From Candidatus Harrisonbacteria bacterium (GTDB taxonomy: Bacteria > Patescibacteriota > Minisyncoccia > UBA6257 > UBA11618): a DNA stretch of 37,489 bases. The position numbers and the translations under genes are program-made. Position 1 is the stretch's first letter; every line of letters starts with the position of its first letter. The stretch covers positions 1 through 37,489 of the forward strand of contig VGJO01000003.1 of assembly GCA_016867415.1 (NCBI GenBank). Reading direction: 5' to 3'. Shown here piece after piece: positions 1 through 37,489 of this stretch. Below the pieces are notes generated by a model. It saw only the letters and a list, made by a program, of their open reading frames with translations, ran no database searches and was not told the DNA's origin.

Positions 1-2597
1 TGCGCTCCGGTCTTGATCATTACTCCCCCGTCAAGCGTAGTCTTGCCCGTCGCCAATAAGGTCCCGCCCACCGAGACATTGCCCGAAAAGCTTCCGTCTT
101 TGGCATTCGTCAAATCCTTCCCGCCCAAATCTCCGTCAAAAGATCCCCCACCCCCTCCCGGCACAGCTTGCCATTCAAACCCGCTTCCCGTATAGACAAG
201 ATACTGATCGGCCGTCGGCGCATTGGCAGGAAAAGCTATCTGCCTATTTCCGATAATAATATTATTAGGCTGAATACTTTCAAAATTCCCCTCCTTCCAC
301 CTATTTGTCACCGAACCAATGTTATACAAAACATCCTGATCTGGAATAAGATCCGAAGCTATCCGTCCATTAAAAGTCACTTTGTCTACCTGATCACTCC
401 CAAGCGCCACATCTCCATTCAAAGTCGTCGCTCCGTCCACATTCAACGTTCCAGAAAAATTTCCATCCGGCCCACCTCCTCCGCCACCGGAAAGATCCAC
501 CTCCCCTCCATTGAGAAACAACTTACCTCCATCTATATTTATATCCCCTTTCACAGTAAGTGCCTTATCCGGAGCTTCAGTATTAACACCCACTTTCCCA
601 TCCGAAGTAATAAACAATCTCGTTTGAAGATTGGGTGCCGTCGTTCCCGTCTCAAATCCAATGCCAGTTGGCACACTTCCCGGCGCTGGATCCTTATCTA
701 CTTTAGCGTAAAAATTAGCACCAATTTGATACGGTGGCCGATTTGCTTCTGGATCATCTACTCCTTGAAAATCAAATTTACCCAAATAATCTCCTTTTTT
801 GACTGCTTTGATAGCATCCGCATTTCCTCTCCCCCGGCGAAAACTTATAAATGGCGATCGGTTTGCATCAATGTCGTTAAAGCGCCTCACTGACACTCCG
901 CCAAAATCTTTATTAGTTCTCCCTACCACATCAAGCATGGAAAATACTGGGTCATCAGTTCCAATTCCCACCGGTGCGTTAAAAAGACCTTTTCCCGTCA
1001 CATGCAAATCAGCGCTTGTGCCTGTATCCTCAATATAAAGAAGCTGATTATTAGGCACAGATTCCGAGGTTGGGTCCGATCCCTGCGCGTCAAAGAAGCT
1101 GAATCTCGTATTATCTCCCTTTCCAAAAACTATACCTGGCTCCGGAATATTGCCAAAAGATATTTTATTATTAGCATTATCAAATATAAGAGAATTCTCT
1201 CCGAATCGGACTACACCTTCTACAAAAAGATTTTTAAGTTGAACAAAATTTGCTACTACCACATCAAAGATTGCATCAAAAGGAGCTTCCGGAGTTCCTA
1301 GGGTTAGTCCTTGCGGATGCGCTGAGACTGCTTTTTGAAATTTTTCTGTGGTGCCAATTTTTTCAACGTCTCCTTTCCACGATGTAATCAATCTCATCTC
1401 AGGGGTGTTCTTAGATGTTAGATCTTTCACTTTCCTGCCAAAAAATCTTCCCATCCCTTGTAAAGAGCTATTGGTCGCGTCCGAAATTTTAGCCCCCCCC
1501 ACACTAATCTCAGGAAAGATTTTATATTTATCTAGCTGCTGGCCTTCTTTATAAAAAGCTAAACAGTATGCATCCCCGTCTACTCCAGAAACCTCCAAAG
1601 AAACATCCCACATCCCTACATTCCCGATAGTGATATCAGACACCCTATTCCACATATCATTTTTTTGTTGGAAAGTTTGCGGCCGCACTTCCTGCCCTTC
1701 AAATTTAGGATCCACCGCCGATGATACGAGATCATCCTCAATATTAAGACCCTTAACTCGAGAAAACTTTACCGGCTCTGCCGAATCAGGATCTCCTACC
1801 CGCTTGTATCTCATATTAGATGAGCAAGTCTGGCCGGAGTTTTTCTTTGCGTATCGTAACTCAAAAACCCCCTTCCCGAACCGCAACGGCTTTTCTTCCA
1901 CCAAAAGCCCCATTCTCAATCGAATAGGGATATTTTCTCCTTCTCTGTTTTTAGGCACTGGTGCCGGCTTATTTTCTCCAGCCAGCGGATGGACTACAAT
2001 TAGCCCATTATTAGGAAAATAAGATCGATAACCTTCCTGAGTTATTATTGTTCGAGCAAGAGCGGTATTAGGTGCCACAATCGTACTGCTATATGATGAC
2101 GCTCCCGATGACGCTTCTACCGTAGTAAAACTCCACGTCCCAGATCCGGCGATTCCACCATGAGGAGTGTGCACCCCCTGAGATATTAAGCCAGACATGA
2201 TTTCCACGTAGTAAGTCGCAGAAGAACTTTGAAGGACGTCAGGGGGAGGGGTCAATACTAATGTATCTCCACTGAATGATGCTGGAACTATTGGGGGATT
2301 ACTTCCCGGAGTATTTGTTCCATCTGTTGAAAAACAGAGTACCGTTTCACCATTTGTTGCTTTTTTTATAGTAATAAAACATGATCCTGAAACCCCAGGC
2401 ACAATACCAGTGACATCAGTAATAAGGTTTAGTGACGCCGGCGTCCCGTTTGTAATTGAGAGAGTACCACCATTCGCAGGATTTAAAGATACAGTCTCTA
2501 TTATATTATTTGCATCATCCGCCCGTAGCTCTGAAAAGACAAAAAAAACACCAAAAAAATTAACTAGAATAAAAAAACTCAATAGAAATCGATTCAT
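1..2597 (-). CDS. Large secreted/surface protein, partial (runs off window start); N-terminal Ig-like domain and tail-fibre-like motifs
   Basis: Missing from the ORF track because there is no stop in the window. Manual translation from ATG 2597 stays open to base 3 (865 codons). Signal-peptide-like start MNRFLLSFFILVNFFGVFFVFSELRA. Ig-like (Big_5-type) signature TYYVEIMSG...GGIAGSGTWSFTT. Fibre-like motifs VGIGTDDP..LDVVG and GKVGVNTEAPDKALTVKGDI, with Gly-rich linkers. Confidence 0.8.
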   Translation of the reverse strand, partial: MNRFLLSFFILVNFFGVFFVFSELRADDANNIIETVSLNPANGGTLSITNGTPASLNLITDVTGIVPGVSGSCFITIKKATNGETVLCFSTDGTNTPGSNPPIVPASFSGDTLVLTPPPDVLQSSSATYYVEIMSGLISQGVHTPHGGIAGSGTWSFTTVEASSGASSYSSTIVAPNTALARTIITQEGYRSYFPNNGLIVVHPLAGENKPAPVPKNREGENIPIRLRMGLLVEEKPLRFGKGVFELRYAKKNSGQTCSSNMRYKRVGDPDSAEPVKFSRVKGLNIEDDLVSSAVDPKFEGQEVRPQTFQQKNDMWNRVSDITIGNVGMWDVSLEVSGVDGDAYCLAFYKEGQQLDKYKIFPEISVGGAKISDATNSSLQGMGRFFGRKVKDLTSKNTPEMRLITSWKGDVEKIGTTEKFQKAVSAHPQGLTLGTPEAPFDAIFDVVVANFVQLKNLFVEGVVRFGENSLIFDNANNKISFGNIPEPGIVFGKGDNTRFSFFDAQGSDPTSESVPNNQLLYIEDTGTSADLHVTGKGLFNAPVGIGTDDPVFSMLDVVGRTNKDFGGVSVRRFNDIDANRSPFISFRRGRGNADAIKAVKKGDYLGKFDFQGVDDPEANRPPYQIGANFYAKVDKDPAPGSVPTGIGFETGTTAPNLQTRLFITSDGKVGVNTEAPDKALTVKGDINIDGGKLFLNGGEVDLSGGGGGGPDGNFSGTLNVDGATTLNGDVALGSDQVDKVTFNGRIASDLIPDQDVLYNIGSVTNRWKEGNFESIQPNNIIIGNRQIAFPANAPTADQYLVYTGSGFEWQAVPGGGGGSFDGDLGGKDLTNAKDGSFSGNVSVGGTLLATGKTTLDGGVMIKTGA

Positions 2598-27071: not shown

Positions 27072-28097
27072 TTAGAGAGATAAATTCTCCGCTTCTTCAT
27101 ATCGAAGCCGTTGCAAAACCATTTTTCCTCCATCTTTTTCCATCAATCTTGGTTGGGCAAAGTCATAAATCATAGTTGGATAAAAATCTATTTTTTTCAC
27201 CCCTTTCTTTGTAAAGAATATTTTAAGCGCCAATCCAGCCCGCGTTTCAAACGACCACATCTGATCAAACACGAAATTTCCCAAACTATAAAAAATATAT
27301 TTTCCTTTATATTGCTCCATGGTCTGCACCACATGAGGATGATGACCAATCACCATCTCCGCTCCCGCATCAATCGCCGACCGAGCAAACTCTGTCTGCG
27401 ATTTGTTTGGCTTCTCTTCGTACTCCCGCCCCGAGTGCATTGAGACAATCACAATATCCGCCTGCACTCTCGCCGCCCGCACCGCCTCCTGCATTTTCTC
27501 TATCCGCATAAACGCCGTCCCCGCCCTGACCCTCCCCGCTTCATAGACCTGCGGCACCACATCTGGATCATTGTATGCTAAAAATGCAAATCTGATTCCC
27601 TTAGTAGTAATAATCACCGGCCGATTTGCCTCTTCACTATTTCTTCCGGCTCCCACATATTCAATCCCCACTTTATAAAGAGCCTCAAAAGTATCAAGAA
27701 GTCCTTTCTTACCAAAATTAGGCACATGATTATTAGCAAGCGATAAAATCGAAAATCCCGCCTCTTGCAATGCTTCAGCCGCCTCCAGATCCGCCCGAAA
27801 ACTCATCTCATAAGGCCGCACCGGCTCGCCCGGCGTAATTGACGTTTCAAGATTTCCAAAAGTAATATCCGCCCCTCTAAGAAACGATTCTGTTTTTCGA
27901 AATGGATAATCATACCCATATTGCTGCATCCTTTTTCCCACTGTCCGCGAAAGCATCACATCCCCCACCGCTACCATTGTCACTTCCGCCTCAACCTCCT
28001 CTTTTAAAATTCCAGGCTTTATTTTCGTTTCCTCACTAAAAGAAAAAAGGGAAATTATGATAAGAACAGAAAGAATAGAGATAGAGTTTTTTTTCAT
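27072..28097 (-). CDS. CapA (PGA_cap) family metallophosphatase-fold protein
   Basis: AVGDVMLSR, GNLET, LANNH, SMHSGREY, IGHHPHVVQ, YSLGNFVFDQ. Confidence 0.93.
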   Translation of the reverse strand: MKKNSISILSVLIIISLFSFSEETKIKPGILKEEVEAEVTMVAVGDVMLSRTVGKRMQQYGYDYPFRKTESFLRGADITFGNLETSITPGEPVRPYEMSFRADLEAAEALQEAGFSILSLANNHVPNFGKKGLLDTFEALYKVGIEYVGAGRNSEEANRPVIITTKGIRFAFLAYNDPDVVPQVYEAGRVRAGTAFMRIEKMQEAVRAARVQADIVIVSMHSGREYEEKPNKSQTEFARSAIDAGAEMVIGHHPHVVQTMEQYKGKYIFYSLGNFVFDQMWSFETRAGLALKIFFTKKGVKKIDFYPTMIYDFAQPRLMEKDGGKMVLQRLRYEEAENLSL

Positions 28098-28137
28098 TAA
28101 AAGCTATCTTTGACTATTAATTAAACCCTTGTTTTCC

Positions 28138-28206
28138 AATTGGCGGTGAAATTATATCCTTTGTACGAACCTTTTTCGAGCGGAAAATGAACTGACCCGC
28201 CCCGCC
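28138..28206 (+). repeat. Site A: putative left junction with a recombinase-tail-like sequence
   Basis: AATTGGCGGTG identical to 37360..37370, then GTACGAACCTTTTTCGAG..TGA (VRTFFERKMN*) and CCCGCCCCGCC as after site B; spacing is 1 nt longer than in B/C/D. Confidence 0.6.
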
Positions 28207-28306
28207 ACTGCCTTGCTTCGCTCGGCAACACCAAAGAAAAATGTCTCTTGCTTTTTTGGATTTGCGCGCGACCAATTTTTTCTTCTAAAAGGATGATAAC
28301 ATTTTT

Positions 28307-28496
28307 GCGGTCGTTTTTGATTGATGTTCGAACTTTCTTTGAGCAGAACCCCGACTAAGGAAACCGCCCCGCCGCCGCTCAAAAGCAGGCGGGCAAAAAT
28401 TCCTTCCCCCCAACCCCCTTCCTTTTTGCCCGCCTGCTTGGGCTTCGCCCTGAAATTTTTTTGGCGAACAGATTTATCGGCGGGATTGGAGCGCGT
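28307..28496 (+). repeat. Left 190-bp inverted repeat (site B, tail coding sequence, 17-bp-stem hairpin)
   Basis: Reverse complement of 35432..35621 with 2 mismatches by manual comparison; 28305..28358 reads LRSFLIDVRTFFEQNPD*. Confidence 0.95.
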
Positions 28497-28503
28497 GCCA
28501 ATA

Positions 28504-28818
28504 TCATTGGCGCGCCTCCTTCGGCGACTTAAAAAATAAAACTGATACTACTAAATCTACAATAGACCAAAAGAAATGTCCAAAGTAGAGAGGGTTGATC
28601 GGATTAAAAACGATTGCGATAACGATCATGGTCAGCATCCATCTCTTATTTTTCTCTTTGTGATATAGATACACTGAGAATGCGGCCGCCCCAAAGATCA
28701 CAAGCTTAAGAGCTTGATAGAAAAAGTAAGGCCATACCGGGATTACTGCGACAAGTAATGCTATGGTCGCTATCTTCGAAAAAAGTTTTCGATATTCAGC
28801 TTGTTCTTTGGTAACCAT
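28504..28818 (-). CDS. DUF6804-like small multi-TM membrane protein
   Basis: PYFFYQALKLVI...IAIVFNPINPLYF..FWSIVD motif pattern; 104 aa. Confidence 0.75.
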   Translation of the reverse strand: MVTKEQAEYRKLFSKIATIALLVAVIPVWPYFFYQALKLVIFGAAAFSVYLYHKEKNKRWMLTMIVIAIVFNPINPLYFGHFFWSIVDLVVSVLFFKSPKEARQ

Positions 28819-28826
28819 AAGTATTT

Positions 28827-29906
28827 CTACGACCTCTCCAAATTTGTAAACTTATCATAATAGGCAAGCTCTTCTTTTGAGATCGATGGTTGAAATTTAC
28901 TCATAGCTTCCAAAAGCAACCTTTCGTCAATAAAACTTTTGTCTTGCGCGACAGCTAGACGAGCGGCCTGTGTGACAATAAGCTCGATGTCCGAACCAAC
29001 GTAGAACTCTGTTTTTTTTGACAATTTGTCGAAGTCAATTCCCTTGTCATAAGGTCGTCCGGATAGGAAAATCCTAAACATATCCTTTCTTGCCTCAAAG
29101 TCTGGCGGTCCAACAAAAATTCGTTTATCCATTCTGCCGGATCTCATAATGGCCGCATCGATCATGTGGGGTCTATTTGTTGCTCCAACGACCAAAATCT
29201 TATTTGCCCCAGCATTGTTGAGCTGAAGCAAAAACTCGTTGATCTCTTCTTTTTTAATATCAGCTGAGGAAGTTAGCTCTTCTCTCTTTGGTATAAGACC
29301 CTCGATTTCATCAATAAAAACAATAGCCGGAGATTGCATCTTCGCCATCTCAAATACTTTCGCAATATTACCTACTGCACCGTGAACCCACGGCGTGGCA
29401 ACCGATGAAGGGTTGAGCTCAAAGAAATTGTATCCCAGTTCTTCAGCCAATTTTTTGACAATAAAAGTTTTTCCACATCCCGGAGGACCATAAAGTAATA
29501 TGCCATTGGGGATAGAGAGTTTAAATTTTAAGAACTTCTCCGGATTTTTTAGGGGCTCTATGACTTCACTAATCAAAAGGGCTTTGAGTCCCTGCATGCC
29601 TGCAACACAATCAAAACCACGCAATGTGGTGAGACTATCGATAATATCGGTTATCTTCTCATGTGAGTGGACATTTATGACCACACCAAGATATTTTTTA
29701 TTCTCATGATCAATCGTCACAAGATCATATCTTTTACCTCGATCAATAACTTCCTCTGGTCGAATATTGGTGAATAGATATAAATATTTTCCGTCAGAAA
29801 GCTCGTAAACTTCTGTGAAAAAGATACGTTCTACGCGACCTTTAATTGTGAGGTCATCCCTCACCTTGAATCCGTTATGTAAAATTGGTTTAGTTGATGT
29901 TGTCAT
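28827..29906 (-). CDS. Classical-clade AAA+ ATPase (single Cdc48/FtsH-like module)
   Basis: Walker A GPPGCGKT, Walker B IVFIDE, SRH ATNRPHMIDAAIMRSGRMD; ~95-aa unknown N-domain. Confidence 0.93.
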   Translation of the reverse strand: MTTSTKPILHNGFKVRDDLTIKGRVERIFFTEVYELSDGKYLYLFTNIRPEEVIDRGKRYDLVTIDHENKKYLGVVINVHSHEKITDIIDSLTTLRGFDCVAGMQGLKALLISEVIEPLKNPEKFLKFKLSIPNGILLYGPPGCGKTFIVKKLAEELGYNFFELNPSSVATPWVHGAVGNIAKVFEMAKMQSPAIVFIDEIEGLIPKREELTSSADIKKEEINEFLLQLNNAGANKILVVGATNRPHMIDAAIMRSGRMDKRIFVGPPDFEARKDMFRIFLSGRPYDKGIDFDKLSKKTEFYVGSDIELIVTQAARLAVAQDKSFIDERLLLEAMSKFQPSISKEELAYYDKFTNLERS

Positions 29907-29935
29907 AAATTTTTCTTATCGTCTTTCATAAAAAA

Positions 29936-30508
29936 TTATTGTGGAGTGCAGTTGGCATCTAGGAAATTGTTATAGGTATCAATCTGACTGTCGAAGGCCT
30001 TTCTTCTTTGATCCCAACTGTTTGCGACAGTAATAAGTCTTTGGCGTTCAGTATTATAGCGATCTACCCTAGAGTTGTAATTGTCTACTGCATACTCATT
30101 ATTTTCATCGACATACATTGCCTCAATGGCGACCTTTTCAGCCTTATTTGCGGCAATTTGTCGATCCAAGGTATCACTCTCGGTAGCCAACTGGGCTTCC
30201 GTAGATGCATTCGGTTTTAACTGCATTGCTCTGTTGTAATTAGAATCAGAGCATCGAAATGTTTGACCGCCTTCTGACAAGAGGTTATTGGAATTTGTAC
30301 CGCCAGAAGATGTGTTGGTTGAGGTTGAGGAGCCGCTATCAGACCAAATTATCCATCCAAAAAAGAGAATCACGCTAGCAATGATCAGAATTTTTTTCCA
30401 ATTATATTTACTTTTTTCTGATAGAGGTTTCTCACGATTAATTGTACCCGTTTTTTGAGGGGTATCCTTATCTAAAAAATCTGTATCAAATTTAAGATGG
30501 TCTGACAT
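29936..30508 (-). CDS. Single-TM protein with extracytoplasmic coiled coil and Cys pair
   Basis: TM ILIIASVILFFGWIIW, Ser/Thr linker, heptad-like region bounded by FRC...ANC. Confidence 0.8.
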   Translation of the reverse strand: MSDHLKFDTDFLDKDTPQKTGTINREKPLSEKSKYNWKKILIIASVILFFGWIIWSDSGSSTSTNTSSGGTNSNNLLSEGGQTFRCSDSNYNRAMQLKPNASTEAQLATESDTLDRQIAANKAEKVAIEAMYVDENNEYAVDNYNSRVDRYNTERQRLITVANSWDQRRKAFDSQIDTYNNFLDANCTPQ

Positions 30509-30514
30509 ATAATT

Positions 30515-31984
30515 TTATCCACTAAATACTGCGCTCAAAATCCAGATGCCTATAATCCCGATAATGGCGTACTGCCAGTACTTCTGCCACTTATGCAGTT
30601 CCAGTTTGCCTAAAAATGAATAACTCCCATTGCCATGATTTTCTACGGTGTAACGTGCAATTGGAATAACTGGTACAAAGAGTAGGACAAAATAGAGAGT
30701 ATCGCCGTAAATCCTAGTTCCACATCCATTAAGAGTGAACATACTAGGCGCACTTGAGATTGGTTTGCCATGTTTAGCTGTTCTCTCTTCTAGCTTCTGT
30801 TTTAGTTCTTGTAGAATCTTTTTCAATTCCAAATCAGTATCGCTGTTATAAATTGCTTGGTTGATTTCTTCTATAGCCCTGTCCGATTTACCCGCCTTTA
30901 CTTTCTGTAAGATTGGGTCAAGAACTTTGTTGTATGCTTCCTCTTTTGTTTTATATGCAAGATTGCTCTGTAGGGTCGCAACATCTGCTTGGACTTTATT
31001 TTTAGAACTCTCTGTGCCAGAAATTTCCTCTGCGATCTTAGCTAGTCCCAGTGCAACCTCGGTTTCATTTAGATCATTGTGTAGATCAATACTAAGACTC
31101 CTTATCGCAGTTGCGGCCCTATCTCGCATTACCTTTGTTTTACTGTCGTTATATAATCCAAGATCGATTAATTTATTTAATTCAGATCGAATTAATCCTA
31201 TGAGTTCTTTTATGGTTTTCTTCTCTTCCTTATCAAGGGTTCCATCCTCGCTGACCTTCAACTTTTCCAATTTTTCAACCGCAATACTAATCGCTTGATA
31301 AGCCGGTCCCAAAACACTTTTCTCAACTTTTTGACCTTTGGCCGAAAAGACCTTCTGAAATTCGTTAATATAATCGCTGTGTTTATGGAGATGATACAGT
31401 TCAGTATAAATGTCAGTCAGGTATTCAACTACATGGCCTTTGAAATCAGAAACAATATCTTCACTGGCTATTTGCTCATCGTGGAGTTTGTATACTTTAG
31501 AGAAAGATGCCCAGAATTTATCTGAATCGACCAACTCTTTCCAGGCGATCAGAGAATTTTGTAGATATTCTTTGTTGTCTTCGACAGCAAGCGTAAGACA
31601 ATACAAAATTGCTAAATTCTTTTTATAAAAGAAAGCTTTTGTGCTTTGACCTTCAGCCGCCTTTTGCCAAACACGAATGGCATCGAGATAGTTCTTTTGC
31701 TTGAGTAGTCCTAAAGCCTGTTCATCAATGCTGTCTGCGATCTGAATCCAAAAGAAATACTCCTTGATCTTCTTCTTTGGAGCTTGAAGTCGTTGCAGGG
31801 CCTCCTTGACTGCGTCCTCAGTTCGAAAATCTTTGAACAGACCGACATCTAAATCATAGCTTGGAACATCATCTACTCTTAAGCGATTAATAATTTCCTT
31901 TGAACGTTTGAGGATATCCTTTTCGCTGGCCGAAATATCCAGTCCCAGAATGTGATATGCGTTGTTTTTGAGTGTATGTGACAT
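30515..31984 (-). CDS. J-domain-like (HPD-less) helical-repeat protein with C-terminal membrane anchor
   Basis: NAYHILGLDISASEKDILKR matches J helices I-II and EALQRLQAPKKK resembles the helix III-IV junction; no HPD; TPR-like helices; C-terminal NGCGTRIYG..YFVLLFVPVIPIARY plus TM helix. Confidence 0.7.
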   Translation of the reverse strand: MSHTLKNNAYHILGLDISASEKDILKRSKEIINRLRVDDVPSYDLDVGLFKDFRTEDAVKEALQRLQAPKKKIKEYFFWIQIADSIDEQALGLLKQKNYLDAIRVWQKAAEGQSTKAFFYKKNLAILYCLTLAVEDNKEYLQNSLIAWKELVDSDKFWASFSKVYKLHDEQIASEDIVSDFKGHVVEYLTDIYTELYHLHKHSDYINEFQKVFSAKGQKVEKSVLGPAYQAISIAVEKLEKLKVSEDGTLDKEEKKTIKELIGLIRSELNKLIDLGLYNDSKTKVMRDRAATAIRSLSIDLHNDLNETEVALGLAKIAEEISGTESSKNKVQADVATLQSNLAYKTKEEAYNKVLDPILQKVKAGKSDRAIEEINQAIYNSDTDLELKKILQELKQKLEERTAKHGKPISSAPSMFTLNGCGTRIYGDTLYFVLLFVPVIPIARYTVENHGNGSYSFLGKLELHKWQKYWQYAIIGIIGIWILSAVFSG

Positions 31985-31988
31985 ATAT

Positions 31989-34502
31989 TTATCGCGTTAT
32001 ACCCGAAAGGTTATCTTTAATTTTCTCTTGATCATCGGATGGGAGCAAGAGTGACAAATTGCGGACACACCGTTTCAGTTCGTCCACATCGCCAAGTTCA
32101 ATTGCTTTTCTACCTTTTTCTATGTAATACTTTGCCTCTCTTTTGTTGATAAAGGTTGGATTACTATCAACAATTTTTTTGAAGTGATGTACCCAAGTTA
32201 CTGGGTTAGAAAAAATAGCTTTTGAACTTAACTCTTTTATTTGCTCATTGATACGAATCAGTAGTGATTTATCGTTATTGGCAATAGCTTTCTCTCCTTC
32301 TTCTTTAAGTTTATTTAACTGATCGTTATTTGCGGTTCTGTCCTTCTCGTCCGCATAATCACTAATGATACTTTGTGTGTCTTGGATACCGTCTTTAAAC
32401 TCTTTTACTAACTGGGGCATCTCTTTCTCTTTTTCAATTTTATCCAAGGCAATTTTTAGATCTTTAATCTGTTTATTTGCCTTCATTTTTTCATCTTCGT
32501 CCACAGGAGCATTATTAACACTTGTTTGAGCAGATTGGATGTTATTGTCAATTATTTTTCTTTCGTCGGGCGAGAGGTTTTCTGAAATAGCTTTCGCTCT
32601 TTCTTTTTGAGTCTCAAGATCTTCCTCAATATTTTTAAGCTCAATCGTTTCGTCATGAGAGGTCGAACGAGCATTAACAGTGAGGTCAATCAGTGGGATA
32701 TAAGCCGTAACAAACACTTCTCGTGATTCGTTCACGACAACAGTTAGTTCCAGCGGCGTTCCCTCGGGGAGATCATGCGGCAAATCCTTCCCATTAATAC
32801 CCACCTTACATAGAAACCCATTACGATCTGGCATGTCAGATTCACCCTCAACCACTATAATATCTAACTCATTTTCCTCGCCCCTCTTCAGCTTTCTTGA
32901 TGTTTTGTAATCAGTAAGAAATCTTTTAATGGGGAGCATTGAACCTTTATCAAAAACTCTTTCGCAAATATTTACTGCCACGTTTCTTGTATAATCTTTT
33001 TGCACCACAACAATACCAACAGAATGTGGTAGGGGGGCGCCAGATACCGATAAGCCGTGAGTAATTGTGAATGAATCAGGGTCAATCGGAACAGAATTAC
33101 CTTGTTTGTCAAAGAGATATAACCAATAGACATTTGGTTTATTTGGTTCGACTGCAACCGTATCAAAGAACTTGCCGTTTTTTAGTTTGATTTTTTGACC
33201 ATTATAAAAGCCACTGTCAGATTGAATTTGTATATAATATTCCTCTTCTGATTCTTCCAGACTCTCGATGATCCCGCTGGCTGTTTGTTCCGTATCAGAT
33301 GTAAGGGATTCATAATTTAAATCAATAGATCGAGTTCCTTCCTTGAGTTTTTTGCCATCACTTTCCATAAACTCTTTTGGAATTTTCTGACCGATACCGA
33401 ACACACAAGCGCCTCTCGCAACTACAGTAAGAGGATCAACTGATGCATCAGTGGTGATTTTGAGATCAGCTTCAATCCTTTCTCGAATATAAGGAATCTG
33501 CGTCGGTCCACCGACAAGGATTACTTTTGCAACAGCACCGGCCTTGATACCAGCGTCTTTCAGAGTTTCCTTTGAGAGTTCTATAGTGCGATCAATCATT
33601 GGCTTGATCAATTTCTCAAAGTCTTTTCTTGTAAAATTAACGGTGAGAAAAATCTCCTTGTCATAATCGTCCTTCCCGATATTTTCCACCACGATTGAGG
33701 TTTTATCATATTCAGATAGCTCAATTTTAGCGGTCTCGGCAAAAAACTTTAATTGAGAAAAAGCACTCCTGTATTTTTCATTACTCCTATTAAAGTTTTT
33801 GATAGAAAACTTTTCTAAAATTTTCGGTACAATCACTTTATCAACAATTTCCAAGTCAAAGTTTTTGCCACCGAGAAAATTATCGCCATTATGTCCAAGT
33901 ACCGAAAGTGCTCGATCTTTGGAGGCGATCAATGCAACGTCAAACGTACCACCGCCAAAATCATAAATAAGCCAATTCTCATTCTTGGTATTAGTGAAGC
34001 CGTAAGCGATGGCGGCGGCTATGGGTTCTTGTAGTAACACCACATGTTTAAATCCGGCGAGGTTGCCCGCTCGCTTGGTTGCTTCCGACTGAAGTACCGA
34101 GAAAGCGGCTGGAACAGTGATCACGGCGGCCACCGTGCTGAAGTCTGGATACTTTCTTAAAATATCCTCTTTCAAGCTCTTCAGAATTTCGGCTGAGATT
34201 TCTTCCGGGCCCATGTCCACGTTGGCTCTCTCAAAGTGAAACTTTTCCGAAGTACCCATTAACCGCTTAACTTCAGGTTTGTAGTTCTTAATCTCTTCTT
34301 CCGATGCGTCCTTATAGAAACTTTCGTATGCTTTCTGGCCGACCACTTTATTTCTTGCCTTGTCGAAACCAAAGACGGATGGGGTATATTCTACGCCTCC
34401 CGGTTTCTTAACGATTTCAATATTGCCATTCTTATTAATTGCAACGGATGAATTCGTTGTGCCAAGGTCAATACCTATTTGAATATTTTGTTGGTTGACC
34501 AT
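31989..34502 (-). CDS. Specialised Hsp70 (DnaK-family) protein, 837 aa
   Basis: IGIDLGTTNS, TVPAAF, QEPIAAAIAYG, YDFGGGTFD, LGGKNFD, LVGGPTQIP; ~110-aa insert after the ATPase domain; divergent substrate-binding domain and long helical tail. Confidence 0.95.
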   Translation of the reverse strand: MVNQQNIQIGIDLGTTNSSVAINKNGNIEIVKKPGGVEYTPSVFGFDKARNKVVGQKAYESFYKDASEEEIKNYKPEVKRLMGTSEKFHFERANVDMGPEEISAEILKSLKEDILRKYPDFSTVAAVITVPAAFSVLQSEATKRAGNLAGFKHVVLLQEPIAAAIAYGFTNTKNENWLIYDFGGGTFDVALIASKDRALSVLGHNGDNFLGGKNFDLEIVDKVIVPKILEKFSIKNFNRSNEKYRSAFSQLKFFAETAKIELSEYDKTSIVVENIGKDDYDKEIFLTVNFTRKDFEKLIKPMIDRTIELSKETLKDAGIKAGAVAKVILVGGPTQIPYIRERIEADLKITTDASVDPLTVVARGACVFGIGQKIPKEFMESDGKKLKEGTRSIDLNYESLTSDTEQTASGIIESLEESEEEYYIQIQSDSGFYNGQKIKLKNGKFFDTVAVEPNKPNVYWLYLFDKQGNSVPIDPDSFTITHGLSVSGAPLPHSVGIVVVQKDYTRNVAVNICERVFDKGSMLPIKRFLTDYKTSRKLKRGEENELDIIVVEGESDMPDRNGFLCKVGINGKDLPHDLPEGTPLELTVVVNESREVFVTAYIPLIDLTVNARSTSHDETIELKNIEEDLETQKERAKAISENLSPDERKIIDNNIQSAQTSVNNAPVDEDEKMKANKQIKDLKIALDKIEKEKEMPQLVKEFKDGIQDTQSIISDYADEKDRTANNDQLNKLKEEGEKAIANNDKSLLIRINEQIKELSSKAIFSNPVTWVHHFKKIVDSNPTFINKREAKYYIEKGRKAIELGDVDELKRCVRNLSLLLPSDDQEKIKDNLSGITR

Positions 34503-34511
34503 AGTAATAAA

Positions 34512-35036
34512 TTAATGGTTGCTTAGTAAAATTATCTTCGCCTTGCGAACGACCTGACCTTTAAGCATGATTGTAGGCTCGACAGTTTCCTTCACGATCG
34601 ACTCCGGAAGCGTAGGGTCTTTCTCTACAGATAAGATATCGAGATTAAGCCCGTCATTGTATTTGTGGTTCTTGTAGTCCACAATCTCGATATCGTATTT
34701 TTCTAGGTAACGCCTTAACTTTTGTATAGAATTTTCTAGACCTTTTAACTGATTCTCTGGTAAACTCGAAGCAGATTTGGTGATACGTTGCTCGATACGC
34801 CACACTTCTATAGCAAGATCAGTAATCTCATTGGCCTCAATAGTCACTGTTACAAACTTAGGGGCTACTGCAGATTTAATTTCCTCTCTAATCTTTAAAA
34901 ATAATTCTTCGAACTTATCGGCGCCGCTGGACTGATGAACGCCCTTGCGTGAAAGGAGATACACAAAAGCAAGGATTAAAAGAGCTCCTGCGACGGTGAT
35001 TGCTACGACAACTGGGTTTGTAAATAAATTGCTCAT
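34512..35036 (-). CDS. Membrane-anchored GrpE-like nucleotide exchange factor
   Basis: N-terminal TM, coiled coil, GrpE-type C-terminus LEKYDIEIVD...IVKETVEPTIMLKGQVVRKAKIIL; directly upstream of Hsp70. Confidence 0.72.
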   Translation of the reverse strand: MSNLFTNPVVVAITVAGALLILAFVYLLSRKGVHQSSGADKFEELFLKIREEIKSAVAPKFVTVTIEANEITDLAIEVWRIEQRITKSASSLPENQLKGLENSIQKLRRYLEKYDIEIVDYKNHKYNDGLNLDILSVEKDPTLPESIVKETVEPTIMLKGQVVRKAKIILLSNH

Positions 35037-35040
35037 AATT

Positions 35041-35250
35041 TTATTTTATTAAATCATCAAGCGACACTCCGAGCGCATCCGCGATTTTTTTGACTGTTTC
35101 AATAGTGGGATTGGGAGTTGATCCAGCTTCAATTTTGGCGATTGTATGAAAAGCTAAATCCGCCTTTTTTGAAAGCTGATCCTGCGAGATACCGAGTTTG
35201 TTTCGGTATTTTTTTATGTTGTCTGCGATTGTGGATTTTTCCTTTGACAT
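35041..35250 (-). CDS. XRE-family HTH transcriptional regulator
   Basis: NIKKYRNKLGISQDQLSKKADLAFHTIAKIEAGSTPNPTIETVKKIADALGVSLDDL. Confidence 0.95.
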   Translation of the reverse strand: MSKEKSTIADNIKKYRNKLGISQDQLSKKADLAFHTIAKIEAGSTPNPTIETVKKIADALGVSLDDLIK

Positions 35251-35272
35251 ATTCGTATAACTTTACTATGAT
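35244..35272 (+). promoter_or_regulatory. Rightward sigma70 promoter toward the recombinase, overlapping the HTH start codon
   Basis: TTGACA(35244-49)-17 bp-TATGAT(35267-72); inverted repeat TATAACT(35256-62)/AGTTATA(35273-79) straddles the -10. Confidence 0.65.
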
Positions 35273-35309
35273 AGTTATATAGTGTTACGATTACTGCTTA
35301 TCGTTAGTT

Positions 35310-35338
35310 AGTATATGAAATTTTTATTATTTCGTCAA
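35310..35338 (-). promoter_or_regulatory. Leftward sigma70 promoter for the HTH-cargo operon
   Basis: TTGACG(35338-33)-17 bp-TATACT(35315-10). Confidence 0.65.
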
Positions 35339-35431
35339 ACACAATTAGGGAGTTCCTTGTCGTTGCCCGCGCATGGGTTGGGTGGGGCAAGGGCAACATC
35401 AACTCTAGCGGCGCATTTTGCTTTACAAAAT

Positions 35432-35621
35432 ACGCGCTCCAATCCCGCCGATAAATCTGTCCGCCAAAAAAATTTCAGGGCGAAGCCCAAGCAGGCGGGC
35501 AAAAAGGAAGGGGGTTGGGGGGAAGGAATTTTTGCCCGCCTGCTTTTGAGCGGCGGCGGGGCGGTTTCCTTAGTCGGGGTTCTGCTCAAAGAAAGTTCGA
35601 ACATTAATCAAAAACGACCGC
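35432..35621 (-). repeat. Right 190-bp inverted repeat (site C, tail coding sequence, hairpin)
   Basis: Inverted copy of 28307..28496 (188/190). Confidence 0.95.
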
Positions 35622-35750
35622 CAAATTGTACTTTTTGCGAAATCGTAAGATGTTGCCTCGGCGCTTCGCGCCTCGGCATGGTATTTTTCCGCAATTTTGA
35701 AGGCATTTTTGAAATCCAAAAACAAGGTGCGGTCGGCAATGCGGAAGTTC
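35570..35750 (-). repeat. Inverted silent copy of the recombinase C-terminal coding region with an alternative tail
   Basis: 35749->35570 reads NFRIADRTLFLDFKNAFKIAEKYHAEARSAEATSYDFAKSTIWRSFLINVRTFFEQNPD*; the first 44 aa are 37/44 identical to recombinase codons 37237..37368. Confidence 0.92.
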
Positions 35751-35865
35751 CTGTGCGACAGAACAGAGAAAACGAAGTTTTCAAAACCAATCTTTTTTCT
35801 TTCGCCTCTGGCGAAAGGTTGAGCACATTTTTCTTTGATTGCCCAAAAGCTAACTTCAAAACAAT

Positions 35866-37413
35866 ATGGACAACTTAAATTTACAAACCAAAAAGTTTTT
35901 CCTCTATGCTCGCAAATCTACGGACGAGCCAGAGAGGCAGGTTTTAAGTATTGAGGCGCAAATGTTTGAACTGCGAGAATTTGCCAAAAAAGAAGGCTTG
36001 AATATCGTCCGTGAATTTGTGGAAAGCAAAACCGCCAAAGAACCGGGCAGAGAAATTTTTAACGAAATGGTGGCGAGCATAGAGAAAAATGAAGCCGAGG
36101 GAATTTTAGCGTGGCACCCTGACCGCCTTGCGAGAAATAGTATAGACGGCGGACGAATAATTTATTTGATAGATACTGGCAAAATATCCGCGCTAAAATT
36201 CCCGACTTTTTGGTTTGATCCGACACCACAGGGAAAATTTATGTTGTCCATTGCTTTTGGGCAATCAAAATATTATGTGGATAATCTTTCGGAAAACATA
36301 AAGAGGGGTATTCGCCAGAAGCTGCGAAATGGAATATGGCCCGCTTGGGCGCCACTGGGCTATATAAACGACAAAAACGCTCGCTGTATCACTGTTGATA
36401 AAGAAAAAGCAAAATATATCAAGCGGGCCTTTGAAATGTACGCCACTGGCGAATACCCCCTCGCTCAAATCCGAAAGATTATCAATTCCTTGGGCTTGGT
36501 TGGCAAGAAAGGCAAGATGCTTTCGGTCTCAAATTATCAATATATGCTCAAAAATAAAATCTATTACGGAATTATTGAATACAACGGCGAAATGTATGAC
36601 GGAAAGCATGAACCGATTGTCACAAAGAAACTTTTTGATTCCGTTCAAGAAGTGATGATGAATAAATCTAAACCGAAAACGCCAAAATTGAAACCTTATG
36701 TGTATAGAGGATTTTTCCGTTGCGGAGAGTGCGGTTGCTTCATCACGACCGAAACACAAAAGAGTCATAACTATTTGCGATGCACTAAACGGAAAAATCC
36801 TTGCACGCAAAAATATGTCCGTGAAGAAATCATCACTTCTCAAATAAAGGAAGAAATCAAAAAAGTTTCTTTGTCTTCCGCTTGGGCAAATGCTTCAATC
36901 AATTATTTTGAAAACGAGAAAATGAAAATTGCCCAAGCGGAAAGCTCTTTCGCCCAAAAAGCGAGGCGGGAGCTTGTAGAGATAGAAACGAAACTTGATC
37001 GCTTGCTGGATTTGCAACTGGACGGCAATTTGTCGCAAGCGGAATATACCGCCAAAAAGCACAAGCTCATTCTCGCTAAAAAAGATTTTGAAGAAAAAAT
37101 CATCGCTTTTGGGCGAAAAAGTAATAATCGGTTCGAACTTGCCATAAACTTCATAAAAGAAGCCAACCAAGCCGAAAAATGCGCTCAACAAGAAAATCCC
37201 GAAAGGATTCGGGATTTTCTCAAAAAGATTGGTTCGAACTTCCGCATTGCCGACCGCACTTTGGTTTTGGATTTCAAAAATGCCTTCAAAATTGCGGAAA
37301 AATACCATGCCGAGGCGCTTTGCGCCGAGGCTAATTCTTACGATTTCACAAAAAGTGAAAATTGGCGGTGTGCTTTCGAAAAAATTCGAACTGATTTCGC
37401 CCAAAATTTGTAG
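35866..37413 (+). CDS. Large serine recombinase (resolvase + recombinase + zinc-ribbon/coiled-coil domains)
   Basis: YARKS catalytic Ser, SIEAQ, WHPDRLARN, APLGY, GKHEPIV, Zn ribbon CGECG...YLRCTKRKNPC, coiled coil; 515 aa. Confidence 0.97.
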   Translation: MDNLNLQTKKFFLYARKSTDEPERQVLSIEAQMFELREFAKKEGLNIVREFVESKTAKEPGREIFNEMVASIEKNEAEGILAWHPDRLARNSIDGGRIIYLIDTGKISALKFPTFWFDPTPQGKFMLSIAFGQSKYYVDNLSENIKRGIRQKLRNGIWPAWAPLGYINDKNARCITVDKEKAKYIKRAFEMYATGEYPLAQIRKIINSLGLVGKKGKMLSVSNYQYMLKNKIYYGIIEYNGEMYDGKHEPIVTKKLFDSVQEVMMNKSKPKTPKLKPYVYRGFFRCGECGCFITTETQKSHNYLRCTKRKNPCTQKYVREEIITSQIKEEIKKVSLSSAWANASINYFENEKMKIAQAESSFAQKARRELVEIETKLDRLLDLQLDGNLSQAEYTAKKHKLILAKKDFEEKIIAFGRKSNNRFELAINFIKEANQAEKCAQQENPERIRDFLKKIGSNFRIADRTLVLDFKNAFKIAEKYHAEALCAEANSYDFTKSENWRCAFEKIRTDFAQNL

Positions 37414-37414
37414 A

Positions 37415-37451
37415 GCGGGCGGAATTCCCCCCAGACCCTCCTTCCGCCCGC
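37415..37451 (+). repeat. GC-rich hairpin with C-rich loop after site D, homologous to the hairpin in the 190-bp repeats
   Basis: GCGGGCGGAA-TTCCCCCCAGACCCTCC-TTCCGCCCGC vs GCAGGCGGGCAAAAA-TTCCTTCCCCCCAACCCCCTTCC-TTTTTGCCCGCCTGC. Confidence 0.8.
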
Positions 37452-37489
37452 CCGCAGAAGCGACCCTTTCGGATTGAAAAAACTGCCAA

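Follow-up and report, generated by a model that had tools for sequence, protein, structure and literature searches.

The DnaK-DnaJ-GrpE and ClpB chaperones join an Hsp70, with its J-type partner and GrpE-type exchange factor, to a ring-forming AAA+ ATPase. Here, we analyzed a cassette of seven genes with the same kinds of components in DNA from Candidatus Harrisonbacteria bacterium (Patescibacteriota; GenBank assembly GCA_016867415.1, contig VGJO01000003.1). The stretch analyzed, hereafter the window, is 37,489 nucleotides long and is the entire 37.5-kb contig C3 of a 631-kb, 12-contig genome rated as 99.85% complete. The cassette, at 28504-35250 on the minus strand, encodes a full Hsp70 cycle, exchange factor included, together with a J domain lacking the His-Pro-Asp (HPD) motif and a Cdc48-like motor. 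It is a conserved unit that occurs across both prokaryotic domains and is rare and mobile. We infer that it functions as a mobile, membrane-associated Hsp70-to-AAA remodeling module in conflicts with phages or other mobile elements, with a probability of roughly 0.45. The locus had been singled out in an earlier reading of the sequence, the original prediction, as a dedicated, membrane-tethered sensing or remodeling chaperone system outside general housekeeping, possibly with a function against phages, in host contact or in envelope stress.

Known systems related to the cassette

The DnaK-DnaJ-GrpE system together with ClpB is the model for the mechanism proposed below. The cassette differs from DnaK-DnaJ-GrpE in its HPD-less J domain, in an 837-aa Hsp70 with a beta-rich insert at the linker, in its three membrane-anchored partners, and in being rare and mobile. 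Its AAA ATPase has a single domain of the Cdc48/VAT type, whereas ClpB is a two-ring Hsp100 with an M-domain.

In the passages of PMC8215388 that deal with HscC, DjlB and DjlC, a specialized Hsp70 of 556 aa, thought not to use GrpE, is accompanied by a dedicated tail-anchored co-chaperone of ~480 aa. The cassette resembles this arrangement in layout but adds a GrpE-like gene of its own and a partner AAA. The original prediction had drawn the same analogy, which stands for architecture and fails for sequence. The family profile of the cassette's 489-aa J-like protein had no detectable similarity to Escherichia coli DjlC (hhalign, 0.2%), placing it outside the HscC/DjlB-DjlC group. Likewise, the nucleotide-binding domain (NBD) of the Hsp70 is 31% identical to that of E. 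coli HscC (E = 1e-43) versus 34% to that of the genome's own DnaK (E = 8e-49).

Two further groups of systems also contain Hsp70-type proteins. The predicted GTPase-centric conflict systems with GAP1-N2 domains include HSP70, GrpE and DnaJ-fused proteins and, in the parts of the source that describe them, combine GTPases with FNIII-repeat proteins mainly in Actinobacteria and Firmicutes (Kaur, Burroughs, Iyer and Aravind 2020, eLife, PMC7159879). The cassette, by contrast, lacks a GTPase and combines a Cdc48-like AAA with membrane anchors and a degenerate J domain. The CoCoNuT type IV restriction systems have CnuD/Hsp70-like units of an NBD and a substrate-binding domain (SBD); where CnuD is treated in the source, its ATPase motifs are degenerate and it is linked to McrBC-type GTPases and to nucleases (Bell et al. 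2024, eLife, PMC11090510). Unlike CnuD, the cassette Hsp70 has intact ATPase motifs and is encoded with neither a McrBC nor a nuclease partner.

The Iet system, which consists of IetA and IetS, has no Hsp70, GrpE or J-like components. The likeness to Iet lies in the cassette AAA, which matches IetA in PADLOC, and in the protease gene (A24, S49 or trypsin-like) that follows the AAA gene in several relatives. The window operon contains neither a subtilisin-type IetS nor any other protease gene and so falls outside this system.

A passage in a 2026 review (PMC13580251) describes bacterial DnaK derivatives beyond HscA and HscC as largely unexplored. Full-text searches of the published literature returned no description of the cassette and 0 papers containing "DUF6804", the name of one of its families; supplementary tables, for example those of PMC7159879 and PMC11090510, might list the cassette. 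We rate it as a known kind of system, a specialized Hsp70/co-chaperone set with an AAA+ motor, that is unusual in its well-defined, mobile architecture shared between domains of life and in its HPD-less J domain.

Conservation and distribution of the cassette

The seven open reading frames (ORFs) are co-oriented and separated by gaps of 4, 9, 4, 6, 29 and 8 bp, confirming the coordinates and the 4-29 bp spacing noted originally. A search with the C-terminal half of the Hsp70 returned 509 proteins at E ≤ 0.001 among 8000 scored candidates; of the 120 relatives listed, 114 are 834-839 aa long. To assess gene order, one genome per species was scanned, yielding 93 confirmed relatives, of which 80 were kept with their flanks. 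Gene presence was determined by tblastn using the window proteins as queries, and the denominators given here are evaluable loci. The GrpE-like gene was directly upstream of the Hsp70 gene in 67 of 77 loci, the J-like gene was directly downstream in all 72, and an AAA gene was found within 5.6 kb downstream in 54 of 57. Since the same order recurs in dozens of unrelated genomes, the cassette is not a chance arrangement. Conserved order around Hsp70 homologs was one of the checks that had been proposed for the original prediction. Wherever that prediction could be tested, we found neither a lack of co-conservation, nor folds that failed to be confirmed, nor a known system that matched.

The remaining genes are optional: a 190-aa membrane protein (P190) was detected in 19 of 57 loci, DUF6804 in 18 of 57, and an upstream helix-turn-helix (HTH) gene in 10 of 72. 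The slot between the J-like and AAA genes is occupied by varying membrane proteins, such as the Yip1-domain protein of L092, a 62-kb viral contig from IMG/VR.

The genome also has a canonical grpE-dnaK-dnaJ operon, on contig C2 (134.8, 810.7 and 84.9 bits, respectively). The cassette is therefore an accessory set, in keeping with the dedicated, non-housekeeping role first proposed for it. Of 401 sampled Patescibacteria genomes, four carry the cassette, the window's own included.

Carriers include many lineages of the candidate phyla radiation (CPR) as well as Woesearchaeota, Nitrosopumilaceae, Nanoarchaeota and Micrarchaeota. Others are bins assigned to Omnitrophota, Bdellovibrionota, Alpha- and Gammaproteobacteria, Bacteroidota, Elusimicrobiota and Coriobacteriia, including Collinsella. 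The Woesearchaeota copy is located on a complete 1.84-Mb chromosome (63% identity) and the Nitrosopumilaceae copy on a 2.7-Mb chromosome (52%).

A distant version, with 22-25% identity over the Hsp70 C-terminal half, occurs on plasmids of Shewanella xiamenensis, Pseudomonas hygromyciniae and Haliscomenobacter. On the S. xiamenensis plasmid (NZ_CP091834.1, record 22608-41762), a small ORF, an 830-aa Hsp70 and a 478-aa classical AAA lead the cargo behind tnsA-tnsB-tnsC-tnsD-tnsE of a Tn7-like element, and are followed by a peptidoglycan-binding protein and several hypothetical proteins. The adjacency of Hsp70 and AAA in this distant version makes their pairing the deepest conserved feature of the cassette.

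The Hsp70 and the GrpE-like protein

The Hsp70 gene (31989-34502, minus strand) encodes 837 aa. Pfam HSP70 matched residues 9-368 only, corresponding to the NBD (E = 7.1e-73), in which the phosphate-1 (DLGTTNS), phosphate-2 (DFGGGTFD) and adenosine (GGPTQIP) motifs are intact. The protein comprises the NBD (1-370), a beta-rich insert (~390-470), an SBD-beta (~490-613), and a helical lid with an extra helical bundle (622-834). Profile alignment with the genome's own DnaK located ~110 extra residues at the site of the interdomain linker, the DnaK SBD motifs at ~490-613, and a helical tail about twice the length of the DnaK lid; residues 543-638 aligned weakly to DnaK SBD-beta. An AlphaFold model of moderate confidence (predicted local distance difference test score, pLDDT, of 71.2), built on a shallow 23-row alignment, contained the NBD, the beta-rich insert, a beta sandwich and nine helices. 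Using this model, Foldseek ranked full-length DnaK structures first, over 650-800 columns (best E = 1.8e-29). The NBD motifs and the C-terminal substrate-binding beta domain with its helical lid place the protein in the Hsp70 superfamily (PF00012).

The protein is nevertheless far from the DnaK equivalogs of NCBIfam NF001413 and TIGR02350, scoring 262.5 versus 648 bits and 253.7 versus 822.55 bits, respectively. More generally, no cassette protein reached the NCBIfam equivalog cut-offs for DnaK, HscA, GrpE or FtsH, and the margins were wide. In two loci of near-identical gene content, one from Gracilibacteria and one from a "Bacteroidales" bin, the Hsp70 is split into ORFs of 168 and 683 aa under translation table 11. 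Such a split would be expected from an in-frame TGA in a lineage that recodes TGA.

The GrpE-like nucleotide-exchange factor (34512-35036, minus strand) is a 174-aa protein with an N-terminal transmembrane (TM) anchor. Residues 43-169 matched Pfam GrpE (PF01025) at 29.0 bits, above the gathering threshold of 25.8, and 22 of 38 family members matched at E ≤ 0.01, so the protein belongs to this family. At 15.6 versus 212 bits, it is far below the NCBIfam GrpE equivalog cut-off and is thus a divergent member. The N-terminal TM is carried by bacterial members and absent from most archaeal ones. The membrane tethering claimed for the system therefore holds in the window and not for most GrpE-like proteins of its archaeal relatives.

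The 489-aa adaptor

The gene downstream of the Hsp70 (30515-31984, minus strand) encodes a tail-anchored protein of 489 aa that we refer to as the adaptor. It matched no Pfam, NCBIfam, PADLOC or PHROG family; specifically, Pfam DnaJ gave no match at E ≤ 0.1, and a PF00226 search of the genome returned the housekeeping dnaJ only. The structure model (pLDDT 83.2) has an N-terminal bundle of short helices, an all-alpha solenoid to residue ~405, a small beta unit and a C-terminal TM helix (463-488). The J-like region spans residues ~8-75, with short modeled helices at 9-13, 21-36, 56-67 and 69-77.

To evaluate this region at the level of the family, 161 N-termini were compared with the J domains of 31 Patescibacteria DnaJ proteins using hhalign, which aligned 57 columns (94.8%, E = 5.2e-08). 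The family N-terminus has the J-domain-like helices I and II followed by I-D-(D/E)-x-P-x-Y at the HPD site. HPD itself is present in 3 of the 161 sequences and Pro is retained in 129; the window adaptor reads V-P-S. The similarity in fold and profile thus covers helices I-III, while a Pfam match and HPD are lacking. Given the profile match and the retention of Pro in 129 of 161 sequences, the region is a degenerate J domain rather than a chance look-alike. On these sequence grounds, the basic helix II and the Pro have been kept, and the His and Asp of HPD have been lost. This upholds the HPD-less, J-like assignment of the original prediction.

Searches for structural relatives of the adaptor model revealed no specific fold relative that could be named. 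Foldseek returned generic TPR, ARM and helical-bundle matches only (best E = 1.3e-02), and the best match across VIA, over residues 217-345, was also generic (Z = 10.8). A further VIA match, to residues 1-81 (Z = 7.5), may be to a J domain. Among the ESM Atlas clusters that match this protein, the one ranked second carries the automatic name "putative J domain-containing protein", and Uroviricota is the commonest label among its 14 members of known phylum; we take this as a lead only. When Hsp70 residues 1-620 were modeled as a complex with adaptor residues 1-110, in a run without controls, the score was 0.15 (mark, 0.32), which carries no weight for or against contact between the two.

The adaptor belongs to a large family: 2924 cluster representatives match it at E ≤ 0.001, and 263 do so at E ≤ 1e-30. 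Its first ~340 residues are conserved and its C-terminus is modular. In the window the C-terminal module is a TM anchor. Elsewhere it is a soluble beta-rich domain (546-548-aa forms), a TM followed by Ser/Thr-rich and Cys-bounded modules (Saccharibacteria), or contains zinc-ribbon inserts (archaea).

The AAA ATPase

The AAA protein (28827-29906, minus strand; 359 aa) has one AAA domain preceded by a family-specific N-domain of ~100 aa. It matched Pfam AAA (3.4e-34) and AAA_lid_3 (3.5e-08), and its Walker A (GPPGCGKT), Walker B (IVFIDE) and arginine-finger (RSGRMD) motifs are intact. The protein belongs to the classical clade (PF00004; the Cdc48/VAT/FtsH/PAN group), and its nearest solved relatives in the PDB are Cdc48 (2.7e-86) and VAT (2e-84). 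It scored 181 versus 600 bits against FtsH_fam. No Peptidase_M41 match was found, the protein stops at residue 359, and it has no hydrophobic window, so it lacks both the M41 domain and the TM of FtsH. The description of a Cdc48/FtsH-type ATPase devoid of a protease domain was therefore accurate, Cdc48 and VAT being the closer of the relatives. With respect to anti-phage ATPases, PADLOC models of IetA matched residues 112-342 (1.7e-32), and the NCBIfam anti-phage ATPase model was matched at 105.7 versus 510 bits.

In six Saccharibacteria loci, a 209-220-aa Peptidase_A24-like membrane protein is encoded directly after the AAA. In five further loci, the AAA gene is followed by another ORF (191-193 aa in four, 256 aa in one), and a Peptidase_S49 cluster lies beyond it. 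An optional protease, encoded behind the AAA gene, may be a recurrent component of the system.

Other genes of the operon

The first gene of the operon (35041-35250, minus strand) encodes a 69-aa Xre/Cro-type HTH regulator (Pfam HTH_3, 3.2e-17) that matched capH/control-protein-like models in PADLOC (3.8e-11). A consensus scan identified a sigma-70-like promoter candidate, TTGACG-17-TATACT, at 35310-35338 on the minus strand. This pattern match agrees with the consensus at 10 of 12 positions and is located ~60 nt upstream of the HTH start, within the repeat-bracketed segment described below. No RNA sequencing run was listed as containing the stretch. An Rfam scan of the window returned tRNAs only.

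P190 (29936-30508, minus strand) is a single-pass membrane protein. Its family alignment revealed a conserved N-terminal D-x-D-(F/L)-x-F-L-D motif, a TM at 36-59, a Ser/Thr-rich stretch, and a C-terminal part between two conserved Cys. It matched no Pfam, NCBIfam, PADLOC or PHROG family. Homology to the TM, Ser/Thr-rich and Cys-bounded module of the longer Saccharibacteria adaptors was considered and rejected: BLASTP gave E values of at least 2.2, and hhalign, with a template set that mistakenly had an archaeal sequence as its first row, gave 15.6%, leaving a likeness in architecture only. The last gene (28504-28818, minus strand) encodes a small multi-pass membrane protein of 104 aa (Pfam DUF6804, 7.9e-20).

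TM segments were called as hydrophobic 19-aa windows with a Kyte-Doolittle score of at least 1.6. By this measure, four proteins have hydrophobic windows, as had been predicted: the GrpE-like protein (3-33), the adaptor (425-447 and 469-489), P190 (36-59) and DUF6804 (11-37 and 61-96).

Inverted repeats, hairpins and recombinases

The operon is bracketed exactly by a 198-nt inverted repeat whose arms are 98% complementary. Both arms contain the last codons of a recombinase-like ORF and, after them, a GC-rich hairpin, which has a conserved loop. The left arm is at 28299-28496 (plus strand); the right arm (35432-35629, minus strand) is directly upstream of the operon's promoter region. Contiguous with the right arm is an inverted, 86% identical copy of the 3' end of a recombinase gene (35594-35750, minus strand, matching 37236-37392), the translation of which matches the recombinase C-terminus. 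The corresponding gene, divergent from the operon (35866-37413, plus strand), encodes a 515-aa large serine recombinase with Resolvase (8e-20), Recombinase (1.1e-16) and Zn_ribbon_recom (6.1e-08) domains. In NCBIfam, it is CcrB/XisF-like at scores below the cut-offs.

Contig C3 ends 76 nt past the recombinase gene, at a further copy of the hairpin, and over 130 nt this end is the reverse complement of the C7 start. The overlap indicates an assembly break at an inverted repeat, and the recombinase genes on the two contigs may be neighbors. The C7 gene (265-1971) encodes a second serine recombinase. Like the gene in the window (86%, 157 nt), it has an inverted copy of its own 3' coding part upstream (122-199 and 1627-1704, 100% over 78 nt).

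The hairpin loop, TTCC..CCCCCCA(A/G)..CCC..TCC, is conserved, and the stems vary between copies yet stay paired. Three loop motifs were found in the window versus 0.10 expected. Copies of the hairpin occur in the window at 28388-28434, 35494-35540 and 37410-37455, on C7 at 1-130, on C11 at 119-314 and 2535-2730, and on C5 near 5004 and 10007. They form inverted pairs around cassettes and are also found beside the two serine recombinase genes. In four lake-water sequencing runs, the depth of the hairpin was 4-6 times that of its flanks (up to ~100 times in the low-coverage run X6), and contigs exited from it into other sequences; the hairpin is therefore multi-copy in the community. It had no Rfam match and might act as a site of recombination or be a mobile element resembling a terminator.

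A related inverted repeat (196 nt, 99%) with the same loop motif brackets a 2.2-kb cassette at 119-2730 of C11. This cassette encodes an Xre HTH protein (382-603), a 152-aa Cys-rich protein that is possibly an endonuclease (600-1058), and a 477-aa protein (1050-2483, minus strand) whose N-terminus and C-terminus, read by eye, are LexA-like and DNA-methyltransferase-like, respectively. It looks like a restriction-modification-type module packaged in the same way as the chaperone cassette.

Logan contigs from the four lake-water runs contained no joints over 27900-36000 and broke at both arms, so the bracketed segment may or may not invert. In single contig figures, the depth of the cassette was below that of its left flank: 29.4 versus 37.9 in X1, 13.2 versus 22.3 in X2, and 5.8-6.9 versus 8.65 in X5. 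This drop is a weak hint that some cells of the population are without the cassette.

On a 6638-bp Falkowbacteria contig, a 63-nt segment 3' of the AAA matches the hairpin core of the window's repeat at 90.5%. Next to it is an additional HTH gene copy plus upstream sequence, 81% identical to window 35127-35344, and the GrpE-like gene is truncated at the contig start. It may represent a tandem or rearranged cassette; circularity was rejected, as the contig has no terminal overlap.

Across the relatives, a serine recombinase was present in 24 of the 80 fetched loci and within 6 kb in 11 of the 32 long-flank loci. As both its side and its orientation differ between loci, the cassette behaves like portable cargo. 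The inverted repeat, the adjoining recombinase and the rarity of the cassette support the mobility first proposed for the locus. Judging from these features and its distribution, the cassette travels as a unit and is horizontally mobile across bacteria and archaea.

Neighboring genes

The 128 nearest neighbors in the 32 long-flank loci were tallied for the top 25 families, as raw counts without an enrichment baseline. The commonest Pfam family was the prepilin-type Peptidase_A24 (6 of 128), followed by serine-recombinase domains (5). Fic, SNase, methylases, McrBC, MvaI and HerA each accounted for one or two neighbors.

BLAST clustering of proteins near the cassette yielded three recurrent clusters: one of 372-500 aa, with recombinase, at 6 of 32 loci, one of 136-149 aa at 5, and one of 369-485 aa at 4. 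A single member of each was scanned, all from the same locus (L020), and contained Terminase_6C, a weak transposase-type HTH, and ParB_N with an N6_N4 methylase, respectively. Together, these matches suggest a prophage or satellite.

L092 was the one contig confirmed among 54 pattern matches in IMG/VR. Its cassette follows genes for an Eco57I-like methylase, a GajA-like OLD/TOPRIM ATPase, a UvrD helicase and a Cas4-like protein, and a trypsin-like peptidase is encoded 3' of the cassette.

Discussion

The rarity of the cassette, its movement between domains of life, its variable sensor/effector slot, and its integrase, prophage and occasional defense neighbors together make a role in conflict with phages or mobile elements the most likely one. 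The observations behind this reading include the serine recombinases near the cassette, the cluster with a Terminase_6C member, the defense genes of L092, the tnsABCDE genes of the Shewanella element, the IetA match, and the restriction-modification-like cassette of C11.

Several points weigh against such a role. Defense genes are a minority of the neighbors, no Pfam or PADLOC family being matched by more than six of the 128. In the PADLOC check proposed with the original prediction, made with PADLOC-DB 2.0, whose library dates from 2023, the Hsp70, GrpE-like, J-like, P190 and DUF6804 proteins, five of the seven, had no match. The hits to the HTH and AAA were generic, with the AAA being IetA-like only. 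The IetA-type match, well under the cut-off in NCBIfam, may simply reflect the common AAA fold. The cassette encodes no obvious toxic effector (nuclease, NADase or pore former). In canonical J proteins, loss of the His and Asp of HPD would abolish stimulation of the ATPase; with HPD lost, hand-off by the Hsp70 may not run as in DnaK-DnaJ. Finally, many of the metagenome-assembled bins are small and, long contigs excepted, some taxon labels of short contigs may be binning errors.

If the cassette is a conflict module, the contacts between its proteins, their clients and the phenotype might be as follows. The Xre regulator would set expression. A membrane-proximal protein would be selected or sensed by the adaptor, through its solenoid and variable C-terminal module, acting with the variable membrane proteins (in the window P190 and DUF6804, elsewhere Yip1-like proteins or fused TM modules), and the adaptor would recruit the Hsp70 to this client. 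The GrpE-like factor would recycle the Hsp70, and the client would be handed on to a hexamer of the AAA, which would unfold or extract it, as from DnaK to ClpB. As an outcome, phages or other mobile elements would be fended off or excluded. A more explicit version is tentative, and we consider it somewhat doubtful: that of a mobile defense or exclusion system, shared by bacteria and archaea, in which the Hsp70 and its membrane-anchored J-like adaptor sense an invader protein, or damage that the invader causes at the membrane, and pass the client or a host target to the unfoldase, the membrane proteins serving as swappable sensors or effectors.

An unlikely alternative is that the cassette is a proteostasis module for the envelope or cell surface, devoted to the assembly, extraction or recycling of pili, host-contact structures or stressed membrane proteins, that is useful to episymbiotic CPR and DPANN organisms and has spread by gene transfer. 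Four of the seven products are membrane proteins, and the most frequent neighbor family, Peptidase_A24, is encoded directly after the AAA in 6 of 32 loci, all from Saccharibacteria. Peptidase_S49 or trypsin-like peptidases follow the cassette in other loci. In PMC8215388, where the system is discussed, HscC with its tail-anchored DjlB and DjlC is thought to act on membrane proteins. While most carriers belong to CPR or DPANN, four in 401 Patescibacteria is an odd frequency for a lifestyle function, and the cassette is also present in Nitrosopumilaceae and in bins of Alphaproteobacteria, Bdellovibrionota and Collinsella. The archaeal GrpE-like proteins without TM, and the association with recombinases, prophage genes and a Tn7-like element, likewise fit this explanation poorly.

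It is less probable still that the cassette serves the element that carries it, by assembling virions or a transfer apparatus, remodeling replication complexes or taking over the host. Virus-encoded Hsp70 and J proteins exist, and PHROG families matched the Hsp70 NBD (2.5e-67) and the AAA (4.6e-44), but no PHROG family was found for the GrpE-like, J-like, P190 or DUF6804 proteins. Similarly, the block of large-terminase, small-terminase-like and ParB-methylase genes adjoins the cassette in 6 of 32 loci, yet a single query with that terminase found no match in the window's genome. The 62-kb viral contig and the Uroviricota lead from the ESM Atlas are set against the confirmation of just one in 54 IMG/VR pattern matches. 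Moreover, 50,697 deposited phage records contained no match to the adaptor at an E limit of 1e-5, or to the C-terminal half of the Hsp70 at 1e-3. The varying position of the recombinase is more typical of cargo than of a core phage module.

An ordinary duplicate of the DnaK-DnaJ-GrpE operon that lies beside an AAA gene by chance is effectively refuted: despite the 34% identity of the NBD to the genome's own DnaK and the recognition of GrpE by Pfam, the equivalog cut-offs are widely missed, the J-like protein has neither a Pfam DnaJ match nor HPD, the 837-aa architecture with its insert is near-constant in length (834-839 aa in 114 of 120 listed relatives), and the AAA is co-conserved in 54 of 57 loci.

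If the cassette is indeed a conflict system, it would add a chaperone-based principle of sensing and remodeling to prokaryotic immunity and would provide a natural test case for how an Hsp70 is driven without HPD. Should its function instead lie in the envelope or in host contact, it would be relevant to surface maintenance in ultra-small symbionts. The plasmid-borne relatives in cultivable Shewanella and Pseudomonas make the question accessible to bench testing.

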